A stretch of DNA of 59,824 bases from Escherichia coli (GCF_003334255.1 NZ_QOWU01000028.1); one strand, 5' to 3'; numbered from the stretch's first letter, positions 1 through 31,796 are shown. The notes: a model not told the origin generated them from the sequence alone. A program made the numbers and translations.

Positions 1-106
1 AGCGCGGTGGTCCCACCTGACCCCATGCCGAACTCAGAAGTGAAACGCCGTAGCGCCGATGGTAGTGTGGGGTCTCCCCATGCGAGAGTAGGGAACTGCC
101 AGGCAT
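1..106 (+). rRNA. rrfD: 5S rRNA, 3' 106 nt (5' end lies upstream of the window)
   Basis: Identical to the matching part of the complete 5S copy at 232..351; ends in the canonical ...GGAACTGCCAGGCAT. Confidence 0.95.
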
Positions 107-118
107 CAAATTTAGCGT

Positions 119-194
119 GCTGATATGGCTCAGTTGGTAGAGCGCACCCTTGGTAAGGGTGAGGTCCCCAGTTCGACTCTGGGTATCAGCACCA
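119..194 (+). tRNA. thrV: tRNA-Thr (anticodon GGU)
   Basis: 76-nt sequence GCTGATATGG...TATCAGCACCA with CCA end and GGT anticodon in CTTGGTAAG loop; sits between two 5S genes as in rrnD. Confidence 0.95.
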
Positions 195-231
195 CTTTTT
201 AGGTTAAAGTTCGGCAGATTAGAAAAGAATT

Positions 232-351
232 TGTCTGGCGGCAGTAGCGCGGTGGTCCCACCTGACCCCATGCCGAACTCAGAAGTGAAACGCCGTAGCG
301 CCGATGGTAGTGTGGGGTCTCCCCATGCGAGAGTAGGGAACTGCCAGGCAT
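232..351 (+). rRNA. rrfF: 5S rRNA, complete 120 nt
   Basis: Starts TGTCTGGCGGCAGTAGCGCGGTGG, ends CTGCCAGGCAT; second 5S copy downstream of tRNA-Thr. Confidence 0.95.
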
Positions 352-3707: not shown

Positions 3708-4733
3708 TTAACGCACGGGCGGTGCGTACTGAATACCGCCGTTATTCCAGAGATTATTTTGCCCACGTTTAATTTTCAGCGGGCTTTCTGAACCTACGTT
3801 ACGCTCAAAAATTTCCGAGTAGTTACCCACCTGTTTGATGATGTTATAGGCCCATTTATTATCCAGCTTCAGATCCTTGCCGTAATCGCCTTCTTTACCC
3901 AGCAGATGTGCCATATCAGGCGTTGCTGGATTAGCCGCTTTTTCATCGACGTTCTGGGAATTGATGCCCATCTCTTCAGCATTCAGCATGGCGAAAAGCG
4001 TCCAGCGTACAATCGAGAACCATTCATCATCGCCACGACGAACTACCGGACCAAGCGGTTCTTTTGAGATAACTTCCGGTAAGACAATCCATTCAGCTGG
4101 GTTGCTTAATTTGATGCGCAGGGCATACAGTTGTGATTGATCCGAGGCCAGCGTATCGCAGCGACCAGATTCCAGTGCCTTCGCTGATTCGTCAGAGCGA
4201 TCGAAAGTCACCGGTGTGTACTTCATATTGTTTGCCTTGAAGTAGTCGGCGACGTTGAGTTCGGTATCAGTACCCGCCTGAATACAGACGGTAGCGCCAT
4301 CCAGTTCTTTCGCGCTTTTTAGCCCCGCTTTATCGTGCGTCAGGAAGCCAATGCCGTCGTAATAAGTGACGCCGGTAAATGCCATTCCCATCCCGGCATC
4401 GCGAGATGAAGTCCAGGTCGTATTACGGGAGAGCAAATCCACCTCCCCTGACTGTAAAGCGGTGAAGCGTTCTTTTGCAGTGAGCGGGGTATATTTCACT
4501 TTCGTGTCGTCACCAAATACAGCAGCGGCAACACCACGACAAATATCAACATCAATACCTGAAAACTTACCGTCAGCATCGGCATAAGAGAACCCAGGTA
4601 ATCCATCACTGATCCCGCATTGCACAAAACCTTTTTTCTGAACGGCATCAAGCGTCGCGCCAGCATGCGCCTGATTTGCAACGGCAAGCAGCACGCTGGC
4701 GGCAGCCAGTGTGGCTATCATCATCTTTTTCAT
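3708..4733 (-). CDS. yhdW: Periplasmic amino-acid-binding protein of ABC transporter
   Basis: 341-aa ORF with N-terminal signal peptide MKKMMIATLAAASVLLAVANQAHA; first gene of the yhdWXYZ cluster. Confidence 0.85.
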   Translation of the reverse strand: MKKMMIATLAAASVLLAVANQAHAGATLDAVQKKGFVQCGISDGLPGFSYADADGKFSGIDVDICRGVAAAVFGDDTKVKYTPLTAKERFTALQSGEVDLLSRNTTWTSSRDAGMGMAFTGVTYYDGIGFLTHDKAGLKSAKELDGATVCIQAGTDTELNVADYFKANNMKYTPVTFDRSDESAKALESGRCDTLASDQSQLYALRIKLSNPAEWIVLPEVISKEPLGPVVRRGDDEWFSIVRWTLFAMLNAEEMGINSQNVDEKAANPATPDMAHLLGKEGDYGKDLKLDNKWAYNIIKQVGNYSEIFERNVGSESPLKIKRGQNNLWNNGGIQYAPPVR

Positions 4734-5385: not shown

Positions 5386-5604
5386 GGTGTTACCTCAGTA
5401 ATAAACGCTAACGCTTAATAAGTTAACTCTCTTATTAACGAGCTGAATGCCATTTTATCACCGGAGGTTATAAATCTTGCGGAATGAATAATGACAAATT
5501 ATGTGAATTGTAAAAATAGTGAAGGGAGCGGGAACTATAGAAAGCTTTTAAAGAGTGAGCAGAAGAATATCTTATTAATTTTTATGGGTTTCACTGGAAA
5601 TAAT

Positions 5605-5626
5605 AAAGGCACCCGAAAGCGCCTTT
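5605..5626 (-). terminator. Candidate terminator hairpin after acrF
   Basis: AAAGGCGCTTTCGGGTGCCTTT hairpin on the minus strand just 3' of the acrF stop; the following T-tract is weak. Confidence 0.4.
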
Positions 5627-5637
5627 ATGTTTCTGAT

Positions 5638-8600
5638 TTATCCTTTAAAGCAACGGCGGATCACCACAAAGAACACCGGTACGAAGAAGATTGCCAGCAA
5701 CGTTGCAGAGACCATTCCTCCCATTACCCCGATACCCACAGCGTTCTGCGCGCCACTGCCGGCACCGTTACTGATAGCTAGCGGTAATACGCCGAGAATA
5801 AAGGCGAGAGAGGTCATCAGGATAGGACGCAGACGCATACGTACTGCCATCAGTGTCGCTTCAACAACACCTTTACCCTCTTTCTCCATGAGATCTTTAG
5901 CGAACTCAACGATCAAAATAGCGTTTTTGGCCGACAAGCCAATTGTCGTTAGCAAGCCCACCATAAAGTAGACGTCATTTTTTTGATTAAAGAGTGTCGC
6001 CGCCAGCAGCACGCCGACAATCCCTAACGGCACTACCAACATAACCGAGACAGGAATTGACCAGCTTTCATAGAGTGCAGCAAGGCACAGGAAAACAACC
6101 ACAAAGGAAATTGCTACCAGAGCGGGAGCCTGGTTTCCCGATAAGCGTTCCTGATACGACATACCCGTCCAGTCATAACCAATGCCCGCAGGTAATTTTG
6201 ACGCAAGGTTTTCCATCAACGCCATGGCATCGCCGGAACTGGTTCCTGGCGCGGCTTCCCCCTGAATCTCCATTGACGGCAGACCGTTGTAGCGTTCCAG
6301 TCGCGGAGAGCCATACACCCAATGTGAAGTGGTAAAGGCCGAGAATGGCACCATTTCGCCGTTGGCGCTGCGGACATAAAGTTTATCGACATCTTCTGGC
6401 AGCATACGGAATTTGGCATCCGCCTGAACATACAACTTTTTCACGCGACCACGGTCGATGAAGTCGTTAACGTAAGTCCCACCCAGCGCCGTTGAAATGG
6501 TCTGATTGATGTCAGAAAGTGAAACACCTAATGCCTGCGCCTTTTCCTGGTCAACTTCCAGTTTAAACTGCGCGGTGTCTTCCAGGCCATTAGGGCGCAC
6601 GCTGACTAAGCTGGCAGGATGTTGCGCCGCCATACCAAGCAACTGGTTACGGGCCTGGGTTAGGGCATCGTGACCCAGCCCAGCCTGATCAATTAACTCA
6701 AAGTCGAAACCCGTTGCCGTGCCCAGTTCAACAATGGCTGGCATATTGAATGGAATGACAAAACCGTCGCGGATCTTGCCCAATTCCATTTTGGCACGAT
6801 GGATTACCGCTTCCGCACTGTTTTCGTCACCATTACGCTCTTCCCACGGTTTCAGACTGACGAAGGCCATACCGGCGTTTTGTGCCTGGCCGCTGAAGCT
6901 AAAGCCGTTAACCGTAAAGACACTTTCAACGTTCGCTTTCTCGTTCTTCAGATAGTAATCCGTAACTTGATCCAACACTTTTTGCGTCCGCTCTTGCGTC
7001 GCGCCAGCGGGTAACTGAATCATGGTCAGAAAGACACCCTGATCCTCTTCAGGTAAGAAGGAAGACGGAAGACGTAAAAACAACACCACCATTCCTGCAA
7101 CAATCAGCGCATAGATCAGTAAATATCGTCCTGTGGATCCGAGGATTTTGCCGACGCTGTTGGTGTAGTGGTTAACGCTATGATCGAAGGTGGTATTAAA
7201 CCAACCGAAGAAACCGCCCTTATTTTCGTGATGCTCAGCAGAGACGGGTTTAAGCAGCGTTGCACATAACGCAGGGGTAAGAATCAATGCCACCAGAACA
7301 GAAAGCGCCATTGCCGAAACGATGGTGATAGAGAACTGGCGATAAATTGCCCCAGTAGAACCGCCGAAGAATGCCATCGGAATAAATACCGCTGACAGCA
7401 CCATCGCGATACCCACCAGTGCGCCCTGAATTTGCGACATCGATTTTTCCGTCGCTTCTTTTGGCGGGAGCTTATCCTCCATCATCACGCGCTCGACGTT
7501 CTCCACCACCACTATCGCATCATCGACAAGCAGCCCGATGGCAAGCACCATCCCGAACATCGTTAGTGTGTTGATGGAGTAACCAAAAGCGGCGAGGATG
7601 GCAAACGTCCCTAACAACACCACGGGTACCGCAATGGTGGGGATCAGCGTTGCTCGCATATTCTGCAAGAACAGATACATCACCAGGAACACCAGCATAA
7701 TGGCTTCGAACAGCGTTTTTACCACTTCGTGAATAGAAAGCTGGACGAATGGCGTGGTGTCATAAGGGTAGAGAACCTTCATTCCCTGCGGGAAGAATGG
7801 CTGTAATTCCGCCAGTTTTGCCTTAATGGCTTTCGCGGTATCGAGAGCATTCGCGCCGGTTGCCAGCTTAATCCCCAGGCCCGCCGCCGGTTTTCCGTTG
7901 ATACGAGCGATAACGTTATAGTTTTCACCGCCAAGTTCAACCCGTGCGACATCTTTCAGGCGTACCACCGAGCCGTCACTGTTTACGCGCAGGGTCACTT
8001 TGCCGAATTCTTCCGGATTTTTAAACCGCGTCTGAGCAATAATCGAGGCGTTCAATTGTTGCCCTGGTAACGCTGGCGTTCCGCCCAACTGTCCGGCAGC
8101 GATCTGATCGTTCTGTACCTTCAACTGGTTAATCACATCAACCGGTGTCAGTTTATATTTGTTTAGCAGATCGGCATCCAGCCAGATACGCATCGCATAC
8201 TGTGCGCCGAAAAGCTGTACGTCACCGACGCCATTCAGACGGCTAAGCGTATCTTTAACGTTAGAGGCCACATAGTCCGAGATATCGTCCTGTGTGGTGC
8301 CTGGGTTATCAGAGACAAAGCCCGCCACCATCAAATAGCTGCTACTGGACTTTTCAACACTGATCCCCTGCTGCTGAACCTCCTGCGGCAGCAACGGCGT
8401 GGCGAGCTGGAGTTTGTTCTGCACCTGCACTTGCGCGATATCAGGATCGGTCCCGGACTGGAAGGTAAGGGTAATTGTCACGCTACCGGCGGAATCGCTG
8501 GTGGAGGACATATACATCAGGTTATCGATACCGTTCATATTCTGTTCGATAACCTGCGTCACCGTATCCTGCACGGTCTGCGCATCAGCGCCCGGATAGT

Positions 8601-8742
8601 TTGCTGAAACAGAAACCGCAGGCGGTGCAATTGTTGGATACTGAGCGACGGGCAATTGTAGGATCGCCAGTGCGCCCGCCATCATCAGAATAATGGCCAG
8701 CACCCATGCAAATATCGGTCGTCGAATAAAAAAGTTTGCCAT
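5638..8742 (-). CDS. acrF: RND multidrug efflux pump inner-membrane transporter
   Basis: 1034-aa ORF with AcrB-family sequence ([36 protein letters not shown]...). Confidence 0.95.
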
Positions 8743-8753
8743 GTCAGATTACC

Positions 8754-9911
8754 TTACTTCGATGCAGTATCTGCGGGGGTATCGGTAGTGGCTTTAACCT
8801 GCTCTCCCGGACGCGCTTTTTGCAGGCCGCTGACAATGACTTGATCGCCAGATTTCAGTCCTTCACTAATCAACCATTTATCGCCAATCGCCTGACTGGC
8901 AACGACAGGGCGCGCTTCAACCTGACTTTTATCGTTAACAATCAGCACGGTTGCATCACCACGCGGTGTGCGGCTAACGCCTTGTTGCGGGATAAGAATG
9001 GCGTCAGGTTGGACGCCTTCATCAATCCGTGCACGCACAAACATACCCGGCAAAAGCGTATGTTGCGGGTTAGGGAAGACAGCACGTAGGGTTATGGAGC
9101 CGGTGCTTTCATCAACGGTCACATCGGAGAATTGCAGCGTACCTTTCAGGGGATAGGTTTGACCGTTTTCCATGACCAACTCTACGTTGCTGGTGGCGTT
9201 TTCCTTATGCAAATTTCCTTGCTCTACGGATTGCTTCAGCCTCATAAAATCGTTGCTGGATTGGGTCACATCAACGTAGATAGGATCGAGCTGCTGGACA
9301 GTCGCCAGTTCAGTCGTTTGCCCATTAGTGACAAGAGCGCCTTCGGTCACAGTCGATTTGCCGATACGTCCGCTAATTGGCGCAGTGACTTTGGTATAAG
9401 CAAGATTGATGCGAGCGCTTTCGACTGTGGCTTTTGCGGCAATCACGGCGGCATCGGCCTGACGAGCATCAGCAATGGCCTGGTCGTACTCCTGCTGGCT
9501 GATGTATTTCGTACCCACGAGCGGAACGTAACGTTTTACCGTCAAATGCGCGATGGCGGCGGCGGCTTCACTTTTCGCCAGTTCGCCTTTCGCGCTGTCA
9601 TAATTTGCCTGATAGGTCGCGGGATCGATCTGGTACAGGGACTGGCCTGCTTGCACATCGCTGCCTTCAGTGAAATTGCGATTCAGTACGATCCCGCTAA
9701 CCTGTGGGCGAACTTCGGCTATACGATAAGCATTGGTGCGGCCTGGTAATTCAGTCTTAACTTCTAACGGGGCCGTTTTTACAATATGAACGGTAACCTG
9801 CGGTTCACCGACGTGAGCTTTCTCTTCTCCCTTATCGTTACAACCGGCGATTAAAGCCGCGGAGATCAGAATAAAGGAGGGCAGGAGGAAAAACCTGGCA
9901 TGTTTCGTCAT
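8754..9911 (-). CDS. acrE: RND efflux periplasmic adaptor (membrane fusion) lipoprotein
   Basis: 385-aa ORF with lipobox LIAGC, immediately upstream of acrF. Confidence 0.95.
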   Translation of the reverse strand: MTKHARFFLLPSFILISAALIAGCNDKGEEKAHVGEPQVTVHIVKTAPLEVKTELPGRTNAYRIAEVRPQVSGIVLNRNFTEGSDVQAGQSLYQIDPATYQANYDSAKGELAKSEAAAAIAHLTVKRYVPLVGTKYISQQEYDQAIADARQADAAVIAAKATVESARINLAYTKVTAPISGRIGKSTVTEGALVTNGQTTELATVQQLDPIYVDVTQSSNDFMRLKQSVEQGNLHKENATSNVELVMENGQTYPLKGTLQFSDVTVDESTGSITLRAVFPNPQHTLLPGMFVRARIDEGVQPDAILIPQQGVSRTPRGDATVLIVNDKSQVEARPVVASQAIGDKWLISEGLKSGDQVIVSGLQKARPGEQVKATTDTPADTASK

Positions 9912-10309
9912 TACTATTCCTCAAAAAACCAAAAGCGCGTTATTTACCCAAAAAGGCAACGCGTTAACTCGCAGAAAGAAAAATACAGTTCGCTATCCTA
10001 CAAATTATCATTCGTCGATGTAAGGAATAGTTATGAATACAGGCATCTCAAGGCACATAAACACAAAAAAAGATTAATATTCTACTGTTTTATTTTGACG
10101 CGGGTTGAAAGAGGCAGAATTAAAACCTCGTAAATTGAAATATATATTGATGTAGTGAATGTATCTTAGGTAAATAATATATATTATTTATTTAACGATT
10201 TATAGCAACTCAATATTAGCCTCTCGTATAAATACACATTAGGTGATAGATTAACCTTCGCTATTTTCTCACTCTGTGTCGAATATATTTATTTCCTGAA
10301 TAATTAATC
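9912..10309. promoter_or_regulatory. AT-rich divergent acrEF / acrS promoter region
   Basis: About 400 bp intergenic region with long A/T tracts between divergently oriented acrE and acrS. Confidence 0.5.
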
Positions 10310-10972
10310 ATGGCAAAAAGAACCAAAGCCGAAGCTCTGAAGACCCGGCAAGAACTGATTGAAACTGCCATCGCCCAGTTTGCGCAGCATGGCGTAAGCA
10401 AGACGACGCTCAACGACATTGCCGACGCCGCTAACGTTACGCGTGGCGCTATCTACTGGCACTTCGAAAACAAGACTCAACTGTTTAATGAGATGTGGTT
10501 GCAACAGCCTTCATTGCGGGAGTTAATCCAGGAACACTTGACGGCTGGATTAGAGCATGACCCGTTTCAACAATTGCGTGAAAAATTGATTGTCGGCTTG
10601 CAATATATTGCCAAAATTCCCCGCCAGCAGGCGTTGCTGAAAATCTTATATCACAAATGTGAATTTAATGATGAGATGCTGGCCGAGGGAGTGATACGCG
10701 AAAAGATGGGCTTTAATCCGCAGACTCTCCGCGAAGTATTGCAGGCGTGTCAGCAACAAGGTTGTGTAGCAAATAACCTCGATTTAGATGTTGTGATGAT
10801 TATTATTGATGGTGCCTTCAGCGGAATTGTTCAAAACTGGTTAATGAATATGGCGGGTTATGATCTTTATAAACAAGCCCCCGCTCTGGTCGATAACGTA
10901 TTAAGAATGTTCATGCCAGATGAAAACATAACGAAATTAATTCATCAAACGAATGAATTAAGTGTCATGTAA
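10310..10972 (+). CDS. acrS: TetR-family repressor of acrEF (EnvR)
   Basis: 220-aa ORF with N-terminal TetR helix-turn-helix (TRQELIETAIAQFAQHGVSKTTLNDIADAANVTRGAIYWHF). Confidence 0.95.
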   Translation: MAKRTKAEALKTRQELIETAIAQFAQHGVSKTTLNDIADAANVTRGAIYWHFENKTQLFNEMWLQQPSLRELIQEHLTAGLEHDPFQQLREKLIVGLQYIAKIPRQQALLKILYHKCEFNDEMLAEGVIREKMGFNPQTLREVLQACQQQGCVANNLDLDVVMIIIDGAFSGIVQNWLMNMAGYDLYKQAPALVDNVLRMFMPDENITKLIHQTNELSVM

Positions 10973-10974
10973 AT

Positions 10975-11154
10975 TCACATTCTGTCCTGAAAATTCAGTT
11001 CGTCACAGTTAACCAGTTTTAGTGGATTAACTGAGTTCATATTGCGGCATTTGTCTGTTTCTGTTGCCAGCAGTTCAATCCACTGCATCAGTAAAGTATC
11101 AAACAGAAAAACGAAGACAGCGAAAACGACGAGCCACCAATACTTGCGAATCAT
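10975..11154 (-). CDS. yhdU: Small membrane protein (DUF2556-like)
   Basis: Start trimmed to MIRKYWWLVVFAVFVF (59 aa) from the 68-aa ORF; single hydrophobic helix. Confidence 0.6.
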   Translation of the reverse strand: MIRKYWWLVVFAVFVFLFDTLLMQWIELLATETDKCRNMNSVNPLKLVNCDELNFQDRM

Positions 11155-11237
11155 TACCTGAGCCTGTGCATGTTTAACCAAGTCTGGCAGGAAATATACA
11201 CGAAATGAATAATCTGAAAACCAGGCTTACACATCCT

Positions 11238-12122
11238 TTACTTTGTAATGAGATCGGGGTCAACTTCGCTTAACCGGCTTCGTTTTGACAGGTTGCCGGT
11301 CTTTCTTTTTTTCACTTTCGCCAGTTCTTCCGCAGAGTAATGCGACGCGACATCCAGCCGTCGAAGCCCCATTTTGATGTACTCGCTGTTGATCTCAATA
11401 CCAATGAATTTTCGTCCGCTGGCGATGGCTACGGCACCGGTAGTAAAGCTACCAGCAAACGGGTCGAGAACGATATCGCCTGGGTTGGAAGAGGCGAGAA
11501 TAATGCGTTTCAGTAAGGCTTCCGGTTTTTGCGTCGGGTGGTTTTCATATTCATCCATCAAATAACGCACGCGCGGAAAATCCCAAACGTTACCCGGTAC
11601 TTTTTGATGATTGTAAGGCTGTGGAGGATTTTTGCGATAATCGATCAACGCGCGCTGCGATCCGGTTTTGGCTTCTACCAGAATAGCATCACCGTTGAAT
11701 GTGTAGTTCTTTGCGTCTTTCACCATCATCAGGATGGGTTCGTACATGGAGCCGTAGTGTTTTTTCGCCTGCACTCCAGAACTGTCATATGACCAGACGA
11801 TGCGACTTTTGATGGTAAAAAGCTTGCGGCACTGGAGATCGATAAAGGGCATGTTTTCCGTACTGTTCATGATGTACATGCTGCCCTGCTTTTTCAGAAC
11901 GCGGTGGCACTCTGCAATCACTTCAAACAGCCAGTCGATAAACAGATCTTCTTTCCAGGCTTCGATCAGACCATCAAAATTTTTACCGATGTTATATGGT
12001 GGGTCGGCAAAGATCAGATCGACACTTTCGGCGGGGATCTTTTTAAGTTCGGCAAGCGCATCACCGTGAATAATGGTCTTAGCTTCATTACCAAACCGGG
12101 TCGGTTCACATCCTGTTCTCAT
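11238..12122 (-). CDS. yhdJ: DNA adenine (N6) methyltransferase, orphan
   Basis: ORF with DPPYN motif IV of N6-adenine methyltransferases; start taken at MRTGCEP (294 aa). Confidence 0.9.
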   Translation of the reverse strand: MRTGCEPTRFGNEAKTIIHGDALAELKKIPAESVDLIFADPPYNIGKNFDGLIEAWKEDLFIDWLFEVIAECHRVLKKQGSMYIMNSTENMPFIDLQCRKLFTIKSRIVWSYDSSGVQAKKHYGSMYEPILMMVKDAKNYTFNGDAILVEAKTGSQRALIDYRKNPPQPYNHQKVPGNVWDFPRVRYLMDEYENHPTQKPEALLKRIILASSNPGDIVLDPFAGSFTTGAVAIASGRKFIGIEINSEYIKMGLRRLDVASHYSAEELAKVKKRKTGNLSKRSRLSEVDPDLITK

Positions 12123-31382: not shown

Positions 31383-31796
31383 AACATAACCGTAGGTCGG
31401 ATAGGGCGTTCACGCCGCATCCGGCAGCCGTTGCCTGATGCGACGCTGTGCGTCTTATCAGGCCTACAAACGGAACATAACCGTAGGTCGGATAAGGCGT
31501 TTACGCCGCATCCGGCAGCCGTTGCCTGATGCGACGCTGTGCGTCTTATCAGGCCTACAAACGGAACATAACCGTAGGTCGGATAAGGCGTTTACGCCGC
31601 ATCCGGCAGCCGTTGCCTGATGCGACGCTGTGCGTCTTATCAGGCCTACAAACGGAACATAACCGTAGGTCGGATAAGGCGTTTACGCCGCATCCGACAG
31701 CCGTTGCCTGATGCGACGCTGTGCGTCTTATCAGGCCTACAAACCGGAACATAACCGTAGGCTGGATAGGGCGTTCACGCCGCATCCGGCAGCCGT
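31383..31796. repeat. BIME/REP array: about 4.5 tandem copies of a 91-bp unit
   Basis: Unit AACATAACCGTAGGTCGGATAAGGCGTTTACGCCGCATCCGGCAGCCGTTGCCTGATGCGACGCTGTGCGTCTTATCAGGCCTACAAACGG recurs with period 91 at 31383, 31474, 31565, 31656, 31747; the ORF track shows duplicate 60-aa ORFs as a by-product. Confidence 0.9.

Follow-up and report, generated by a model that had tools for sequence, protein, structure and literature searches.

An intact wild-type acrS-acrEF efflux locus of Escherichia coli with a native, AT-rich control region

The segment at positions 5638 to 10972 of the analyzed stretch of E. coli DNA (hereafter the window; 59.8 kb, 50.7% G+C) is the ordinary acrS(envR)-acrEF backup drug-efflux locus in its wild-type allele, and as such is already known. 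It is almost certainly a native, uninterrupted locus that would be poorly transcribed through the action of H-NS and AcrS/EnvR and would be activated by loss of hns or by insertion of an IS element. The identities and intactness of its genes, the operon layout, the base composition, the absence of an insertion, and the distribution of the locus in the population were all observed directly, and no evidence against the identification was found.

Results

Genes of the locus

The locus comprises two genes on the minus strand and one on the plus strand, separated by a spacer of 398 bp. The first-pass annotation had described an adaptor, an RND transporter, and a divergently transcribed TetR repressor; the open reading frame coordinates match this description to the base, and the assigned NCBIfam families agree with it.

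acrF, 5638..8742, minus strand: RND inner-membrane permease, 1034 aa, 51.5% G+C (open reading frame, TIGR00915, identity to K-12 b3266)
acrE-acrF junction, 8743..8753, minus strand: 11 nt with an AAGG ribosome-binding site, ...GAAGTAAGGTAATCTGACATGGCA (direct reading of the sequence)
acrE, 8754..9911, minus strand: periplasmic adaptor lipoprotein, 385 aa, 52.1% G+C (open reading frame, TIGR01730, identity to K-12 b3265)
acrE/acrS divergent control region, 9912..10309, no strand: 398 bp, 30.7% G+C, uninterrupted (composition, identity to K-12)
acrS (envR), 10310..10972, plus strand: TetR-family repressor, 220 aa, 44.2% G+C (open reading frame, NF007430, identity to K-12 b3264)

Against NCBIfam, the 1034-aa protein scored 1862.8 bits with the RND permease subfamily TIGR00915 (cut-off 940.35; residues 1 to 1033) and 1656.5 bits with NF000282 (cut-off 1250). 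The AcrB and AcrD equivalogs were both rejected as its identity, with scores of 1968 (cut-off 2150) and 1641 (cut-off 1854), respectively; these sub-cut-off scores, together with 100% identity to K-12 AcrF, identify the permease as AcrF. The proton-relay residues of AcrB, D407, D408, K940, R971, and T978, have counterparts in AcrF at D407, D408, K939, R970, and T977, the one-residue offset having been placed by eye. The 385-aa protein matched the RND adaptor family TIGR01730 with 287.3 bits (cut-off 94.9) and fell short of the AcrA equivalog (614; cut-off 765). Its residues 20 to 24 form an L-I-A-G-C lipobox, which indicates a lipoprotein signal, and its ATG is preceded by a GAGGA Shine-Dalgarno sequence 7 nt 5' of it. 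Across its full length (residues 1 to 220), the third protein scored 434 bits with NF007430, the equivalog named "acrEF/envCD operon transcriptional regulator" (cut-off 274), and was rejected as AcrR (181.5; cut-off 271). That the locus is a paralogue of the main efflux pump, as had been claimed, is borne out both by these near misses of the AcrB and AcrA equivalogs and by the published similarities of 77.6% between AcrF and AcrB and 69.3% between AcrE and AcrA (PMC4462101).

The 11-nt junction and its AAGG place acrE and acrF in a two-gene operon arrangement. Two open reading frames that overlap the spacer, 9900..10133 on the plus strand and 10304..10504 on the minus strand, were dismissed as chance frames, being unannotated in both K-12 and RefSeq. 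A terminator scan 3' of acrF found none, and a search of 5638 to 10972 against Rfam at gathering thresholds returned no RNA families.

Identity to K-12 MG1655

All three products are identical to those of K-12 MG1655: AcrF over 1034/1034 residues (b3266), AcrE over 385/385 (b3265, annotated there as a membrane fusion lipoprotein), and AcrS over 220/220 (b3264). The acrE/acrS spacer is likewise identical at 398/398 bases. As the spacer equals that of K-12 base for base, the locus is in its native configuration without an IS element, in agreement with the first-pass annotation, and nothing that would mark an IS-activated allele, namely an insertion between acrS and acrE, is present in the window. 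The gene order yhdV-acrF-acrE / acrS-yhdU-yhdJ-fis is also shared. The window is nevertheless not MG1655 itself, because the neighboring yhdW, an intact 341-aa open reading frame here, is a pseudogene according to the MG1655 annotation; the locus proper shows no differences. RefSeq carries the same gene annotation in genomes that are 100% identical across 5.9 kb. It also follows from the identity to K-12 that acrF here lacks the 45-bp insertion reported as conserved in acrF of O157:H7 (ST11) (PMC10202319).

Composition of the spacer and silencing by H-NS

The first-pass annotation had called the intergenic region strongly AT-rich with long A/T tracts, and the composition upholds this. Among all 398-bp frames of the window, the one lowest in G+C lies in the spacer, and only 0.02% of frames are equally low. 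Of the 25 annotated intergenic regions that measure 80 bp or more, none is as AT-rich as the spacer, whose center, 10112-10211, falls to 23% G+C. The spacer has eight runs of 8 nt or longer made up of A and T only, an ordinary number relative to shuffles (P = 0.26), whereas the longest run exceeds expectation even at the composition of the spacer (P about 0.01; 20,000 spacer shuffles).

Longest A/T-only tract, 10171..10195, no strand: 25 nt, TAAATAATATATATTATTTATTTAA, inside the 23% G+C core
Sigma-70-like match TTAAAA-17-TATATT, 10120..10148, plus strand: the only such match in the spacer, pointing to acrS (consensus scan)

The longest tract overlaps a 15-nt inverted repeat (10166-10180/10181-10195), and a search of the spacer for inverted repeats returned low-complexity AT palindromes only. 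The single sigma-70-like match compares with 2.2 expected in shuffles, which gives no evidence of function; on the acrE strand of the native spacer, the consensus promoter scan found no sigma-70-like site.

AT-richness is what is expected of a region silenced by H-NS, and the spacer displays it both in composition (30.7% vs 50.7% G+C) and in its 25-nt A/T run. The high-affinity 10-nt H-NS motif TCGATAAATT matched nine times in the window with at most one mismatch, which is no enrichment, and none of the matches lies in the spacer. Two other loci of E. coli are silenced by H-NS: bgl, a cryptic operon switched on by IS insertion, and mdtEF, which loses its repression along with acrEF when hns is mutated; both represent other gene families with other regulators, and their likeness to acrEF is one of regulatory logic only.

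For the low expression itself we rely on literature, in reviews and secondary citations, that concerns the identical K-12 sequence, as we do for H-NS repression, regulation by EnvR, and activation by IS elements. Reviews describe acrEF as barely expressed in wild-type K-12 and repressed by H-NS, and report that deletion of hns alone de-represses it (PMC4462101). The statement of the first-pass annotation that acrEF is normally silent and is activated by upstream insertions or by loss of silencing accords with the reviews, which name IS1, IS2, and IS10 (PMC9330008). H-NS probably acts directly on the DNA of 9912-10309. SdiA has been reported as an additional regulator (PMC4462101). The title of Lau and Zgurskaya (2005), as cited in PMC4462101, ties AcrEF-TolC deficiency to cell-division defects, which implies some expression; "silent" is accordingly a relative term.

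H-NS preferentially silences AT-rich acquired DNA, and the spacer at 30.7% G+C and acrS at 44.2% could on this ground be read as marks of a horizontally acquired island silenced as foreign. The acrE and acrF genes, however, match the window in composition (52.1% and 51.5% vs 50.7%), and the locus lies in a conserved core context beside fis, dusB, and rrnD, with no flanking mobile-element genes here. About 96% of E. coli genomes moreover carry it, and envR has been reported to be a core gene of Escherichia and Salmonella (PMC6790063). An acquired origin is already largely refuted on these grounds and is scarcely credible.

Regulation by AcrS and a candidate operator half-site

The acrR-acrAB locus has the same layout, with a divergent TetR repressor, an adaptor, and an RND permease, and with TolC encoded elsewhere. 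The two differ in expression, acrAB being constitutive and induced by MarA/SoxS/Rob (PMC4462101) whereas acrEF is repressed by H-NS. They differ as well in their spacers: that of acrR-acrA in K-12 is 141 bp long and contains the full 24-bp palindrome of the AcrR operator (TACATACATTCACAAATGTATGTA), whereas that of acrEF is 398 bp long, far AT-richer, and has a half-site only, which the two loci hold in common.

Candidate AcrS/AcrR half-site ATACATTCAC, 10155..10164, minus strand: 10 nt, exact match to half of the 24-bp acrR-acrA palindrome

This sequence occurs once in the 59.8-kb window, within the spacer, with 0.11 occurrences expected; a search for the full palindrome with up to three mismatches found no match in the window. 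Its core, GAATGTAT, is invariant across five divergent E. coli spacers, but the spacer is at its most polymorphic in the flanks of that core. Judging from these matches, 10155-10164 may be part of an operator of the AcrS/AcrR type.

EnvR/AcrS has been described as a regulator of the divergent acrEF operon that also represses acrAB (PMC6790063). This description, together with the divergent TetR layout, the equivalog assignment of the regulator, and a half-site unique to the spacer within the window, would suit a model in which low expression arises mainly from AcrS bound at a spacer operator in the manner of acrR-acrAB, H-NS and AT-richness being secondary. Such a model is unlikely: hns deletion by itself de-represses acrEF according to the reviews, and the AcrS target that experiments have emphasized is acrAB, to go by the title of Hirakawa 2008 as cited in PMC4462101. 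The half-site also lacks its partner and sits among the polymorphic flanks noted above, and acrS is annotated as intact in XJ55 and AR436, two genomes that carry IS1 upstream of acrE. Silencing by H-NS, with AcrS as a local contributor, remains the preferred reading.

IS insertions and distribution in the population

Upstream integration of IS1 or IS2 in E. coli, and of IS1 or IS10 in Salmonella, activates acrEF (PMC9330008). The acrEF-envR locus of Salmonella enterica, an orthologue in another genus, resembles the present one according to the literature: the title of Nishino 2009 describes it as repressed by H-NS, and Olliver 2005, as cited in PMC9330008, as activated by IS1/IS10 insertion in acrB mutants.

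The first-pass annotation had proposed comparing 9912..10309 with resistant isolates for IS insertions; a comparison with other E. coli genomes yielded two IS1 sites, both of them empty here.

IS1 site in XJ55, 9966..9974, no strand: AACTCGCAG, 9-bp target duplication, 63 bp upstream of the acrE ATG
IS1 site in AR436, 10040..10048, no strand: CAGGCATCT here and CTGGCGTCT in carriers, 137 bp upstream of the acrE ATG

These cases were found with a spacer query to which IS1 had been appended, which recovers IS1 cases only, and amount to at least three genomes when AR_0374 is included, whose match to the AR436 site was inferred from equal span, piece count, and score. A consensus scan of the IS1-acrE junctions of AR436 and XJ55 found no hybrid outward promoter, only the IS1 insA promoter. 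Among the 5426 complete E. coli genomes surveyed, 5215 have an intact spacer and 20 have one that a large insertion splits, whereas in 195 it went undetected; about 17 genomes with split spacers are thus additional to XJ55, AR436, and AR_0374. Other genomes carry IS1 within acrE (13KWH46 and Ec1120) or IS903B within acrE (Ec-2939), IS-flanked deletions elsewhere remove either the acrE 5' end, spacer, and acrS or acrEF, and acrF of XJ55 contains an internal stop. Taken together, these cases suggest that in nature the locus is inactivated more often than it acquires promoter-proximal insertions of the kind selected in the laboratory.

Such inactivations, easily found as they are, invite the view that acrEF is a dispensable, decaying duplicate whose silence reflects relaxed selection on the way to pseudogenization. 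The conserved 45-bp acrF insertion of ST11/O157:H7 (PMC10202319), the 195 of 5426 genomes in which the spacer went undetected, and the drift suggested by PMC6790063 would fit this view. We consider it improbable, since all three open reading frames here are uninterrupted and equal those of K-12, about 96% of the surveyed genomes retain an intact spacer, and most of the 5.9-kb locus is in one piece in 5194/5426. Reviews state that acrEF gives multidrug resistance when cloned or activated (PMC4462101); this and the reported core status of envR in both Escherichia and Salmonella (PMC6790063) likewise speak against decay.

Discussion

The properties of the locus are consistent with the following mechanism. 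The AcrE adaptor and the AcrF RND proton antiporter would join TolC, encoded elsewhere, to export much of the drug range of AcrAB-TolC. The AT-rich upstream region, without a consensus-like promoter, would serve as the substrate for H-NS silencing and leave acrEF very poorly transcribed, and the divergent TetR-family AcrS/EnvR would add local repression and also repress acrAB. Loss of H-NS, or insertion of an IS element into the spacer upstream of acrE, would break the silencing and make the pump phenotypically relevant; such activation would typically be selected in the absence of AcrB or in the presence of antibiotics.

Two further ideas are offered tentatively, and we regard them as possible at best. 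Its extreme AT-richness could make the spacer a recurrent natural landing pad for IS1, such that a few wild or clinical E. coli carry a pre-activated acrEF; separately, the GAATGTAT core at 10157-10164 could be a site of cross-regulation of both pumps by AcrS and/or AcrR. Neither confers novelty on the window, which holds the silent wild-type allele and hence no new biology.

The survey gives a rough idea of how often the spacer is disrupted in nature (20 split plus 195 undetected, out of 5426). As a reserve pump, AcrEF has clinical relevance: a single transposition or hns mutation can restore multidrug efflux to cells that have lost AcrAB or in which it is inhibited, and whether a genome carries a silent or an activated acrEF allele is therefore useful for the prediction of resistance.

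Identity and architecture of the acrS-acrEF locus

The six-frame ORF list of the window returned acrF, acrE, acrS and a 398-bp gap at exactly the coordinates assigned to them in the first-pass annotation:

5638..8742, minus strand: acrF, RND permease (1034-aa ORF; TIGR00915)
8754..9911, minus strand: acrE, RND periplasmic adaptor (385-aa ORF, 11 nt upstream of the acrF ORF; TIGR01730)
9912..10309: divergent acrE/acrS spacer (398 bp between the two start codons)
10310..10972, plus strand: acrS/envR, regulator (220-aa ORF, divergent from acrE; NF007430)

The assignment of these genes as an adaptor, an RND transporter and a divergent TetR repressor was borne out by NCBIfam matches and by 100% identity to K-12. 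AcrF scored 1863 bits against TIGR00915 (cut-off 940), slightly below the AcrB and AcrD equivalog cut-offs; AcrE scored 287 against TIGR01730 (cut-off 95), below the AcrA cut-off; and AcrS scored 434 against NF007430, "acrEF/envCD operon transcriptional regulator" (cut-off 274). Identity to K-12 MG1655 extends over 1034/1034, 385/385 and 220/220 residues of AcrF, AcrE and AcrS/EnvR, respectively, and over 398/398 bases of the spacer, which thus lacks an insertion, as had been claimed. Many E. coli chromosomes carry 100%-identical copies of 5400-11300 (megablast), annotated acrF, acrE, acrS, yhdU and yhdJ, and the gene order yhdV-acrF-acrE / acrS-yhdU-yhdJ-fis-dusB is common to the window and MG1655. 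A LIAGC lipobox is present in AcrE, AcrF has both aspartates of the proton relay (D407/D408) along with the K, R and T farther downstream, and Shine-Dalgarno sequences precede both acrE and acrF; an Rfam search inside the locus matched no family. The pump needs TolC, which is encoded elsewhere. The intact ORFs, together with broad conservation and resistance upon activation, contradict a model in which the locus is a decaying pseudogene.

Downstream, acrS (+) and yhdU (-) converge with stop codons 2 nt apart (10972-10975), leaving no room for separate terminators, so that convergent transcripts would overlap. At 3708-4733 (minus strand), yhdW, which encodes the yhdWXYZ ABC transporter's periplasmic binding protein, is intact over 341 aa, whereas the MG1655 annotation lists this gene as a pseudogene; the window thus does not derive from MG1655 itself, although the acrS-acrEF locus is identical in both. 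Positions 1-349 (+) cover the end of an rRNA operon that has two copies of the 5S gene, matching the K-12 rrfD-thrV-rrfF arrangement:

1-104, plus strand: partial 5S
119-191, plus strand: tRNA-Thr
234-349, plus strand: second 5S, complete

Rfam RF02564 naRNA4 (CssrE) has four tandem hits, approximately 91 bp apart, at 31395-31737 (+; 71-77 bits, gathering threshold 59.5) within the yhdP-tldD intergenic region, the most G+C-rich of the window (56.6%).

Composition of the divergent spacer

The spacer had been described as strongly AT-rich with long A/T tracts, and the composition agrees: its G+C content is 30.7%, whereas the window averages 50.7%; it holds the 398-bp frame with the least G+C in the 59.8 kb (0.02% of frames are equally low), and among the 25 intergenic regions annotated at 80 bp or longer it is the most AT-rich. 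G+C drops to 23% at its centre (10112-10211). A/T-only runs of 8 nt or more number eight in the spacer, which is not unusual relative to shuffles (P = 0.26); the longest, of 25 nt (10171-10195), exceeds expectation for this composition (P ~0.01, 20,000 shuffles). The G+C contents of acrE (52.1%) and acrF (51.5%) are native and the locus lies in a core genomic setting, both of which contradict a foreign-island model.

Further intergenic regions with a strong AT bias are yhcN/argR (38238-38601, 32.7% G+C), dcuC/nanR (48907-49284, 33.3%) and yhdV/acrF (5386-5637, 34.5%). Among five aligned E. coli spacers (94-100% identical), substitutions concentrate in the central ~70 bp (10103-10171; alignment columns 222-290), and the acrE-proximal 160 bp and acrS-proximal 120 bp are near-invariant.

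Silencing and regulation

Because the locus is base for base that of K-12, published K-12 results apply. AcrF shows 77.6% similarity to AcrB, and AcrE 69.3% to AcrA; acrEF deletion confers no resistance phenotype, AcrEF rises when H-NS is inactivated, and IS elements recombined upstream raise acrEF expression, suppressing the hypersensitivity of acrB mutants to solvents and fluoroquinolones (PMC4462101). PMC6599122 agrees, citing Kobayashi 2001 (IS1/IS2) and Jellen-Ritter & Kern 2001, and for a Salmonella IS1/IS10 case Olliver 2005. The operon has been termed HNS silenced (PMC10202319), and IS activations have been tabulated (PMC9330008). These four sources uphold, for the identical K-12 locus, the claim of normal silence relieved by upstream insertions or lost silencing.

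H-NS silencing of acrEF is thus supported by the K-12 literature, with direct binding to the spacer putative; no near match to a high-affinity H-NS motif was found within the spacer. A consensus scan of the spacer turned up one weak sigma-70-like site facing acrS, a count below that of shuffles; the acrE strand had none, in keeping with a weak native promoter. The divergent acrEF operon is regulated by EnvR, which also binds upstream of acrAB (PMC6790063), and AcrS is documented as an acrAB repressor at least as well as an acrEF repressor. Silencing dominated by this TetR regulator is possible as a contributing layer, but the reported hns phenotype argues against it as the main explanation.

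A 24-bp palindrome, TACATACATTCACAAATGTATGTA, sits in the K-12 acrR-acrA spacer. The acrS-acrE spacer, in contrast, has only a 10-nt half, ATACATTCAC, at 10155-10164 (-), its single occurrence in the 59.8-kb window (0.11 expected); the full palindrome is absent from the whole window at up to 3 mismatches. The core GAATGTAT is invariant across the five aligned spacers (94-100% identity), and the bases immediately to its left are their most polymorphic part. From sequence, the half-site fits, without proving, a candidate site common to AcrS and AcrR.

Natural insertions and loss

The first-pass annotation had proposed comparing the spacer with resistant isolates for IS insertions. Among 5426 complete E. 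coli genomes queried with the spacer alone, it was found in 5231 (94 to 100% identity) and unmatched in 195; it was in one intact piece in 5215 and split between two places, i.e., by an insertion of more than ~700 bp, in 20. With a two-flank query, the acrE and acrS 5' ends lay >800 bp apart in 89 genomes and the joined match was missing in 179. On records labelled plasmids, the spacer matched once and the 5.9-kb locus query in three places; these hits could reflect chromids, misassembly or paralogues.

IS1 cases were brought up by adding IS1, in both orientations, to the locus query, followed by annotation and junction reading; their count is a lower bound (40 pieces reached in 1079 records). 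In XJ55, whose acrF has an internal stop, IS1 is inserted 63 bp upstream of the acrE start codon (target 9966-9974); in AR436 the distance is 137 bp (target 10040-10048), and in AVS0247 IS1 lies at the start codon itself (ATG to CTG). Each insertion has a 9-bp target duplication, and the insA end points toward acrE (3/3 genomes read). From identical span, piece count and score, we infer that AR_0374 carries the AR436 insertion. No consensus hybrid promoter was seen at the upstream IS1 junctions of AR436 and XJ55, both scanned, so any activation in those isolates is putative.

Inactivating events were easier to find. IS1 interrupts acrE in 13KWH46 and Ec1120, and IS903B does so in Ec-2939 (L009 3000-3968) and in Ec-050-T20-ESBL (L011 5162-6130), the latter with a deletion as far as yhdU; the IS903B insertion in acrE is probably behind many of the 89 genomes with separated 5' ends. 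Res13-Lact-PEA12-26 has an IS1-flanked deletion of acrE-5'/spacer/acrS/yhdU-3', and strain 035152 has IS1 61 bp upstream of acrS and has lost acrEF-yhdV. The truncated acrE remnant (1029 bp) is identical in the two IS903B isolates, which are unrelated-looking and human. IS1 has hit the acrE-acrS region repeatedly in natural isolates (XJ55, AR436, AVS0247, 035152 and records L004, L005 and L010), with adjacent deletions too: on the acrE side it occupies three different positions within the spacer or on its border, two sites fall inside acrE, and another lies 61 bp upstream of acrS.

Together with a published 45-bp insertion in O157:H7 acrF (PMC10202319), these insertions and deletions suggest that loss or disruption of the locus is frequent, which fits a rarely expressed gene set; acrS-acrEF is still kept in ~96% of genomes. 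The locus in the window is the textbook wild-type acrS-acrEF allele, already known, and only the by-products are mildly new: the IS1 sites seen in natural isolates, the finding that inactivating events predominate, and the unique operator half-site.
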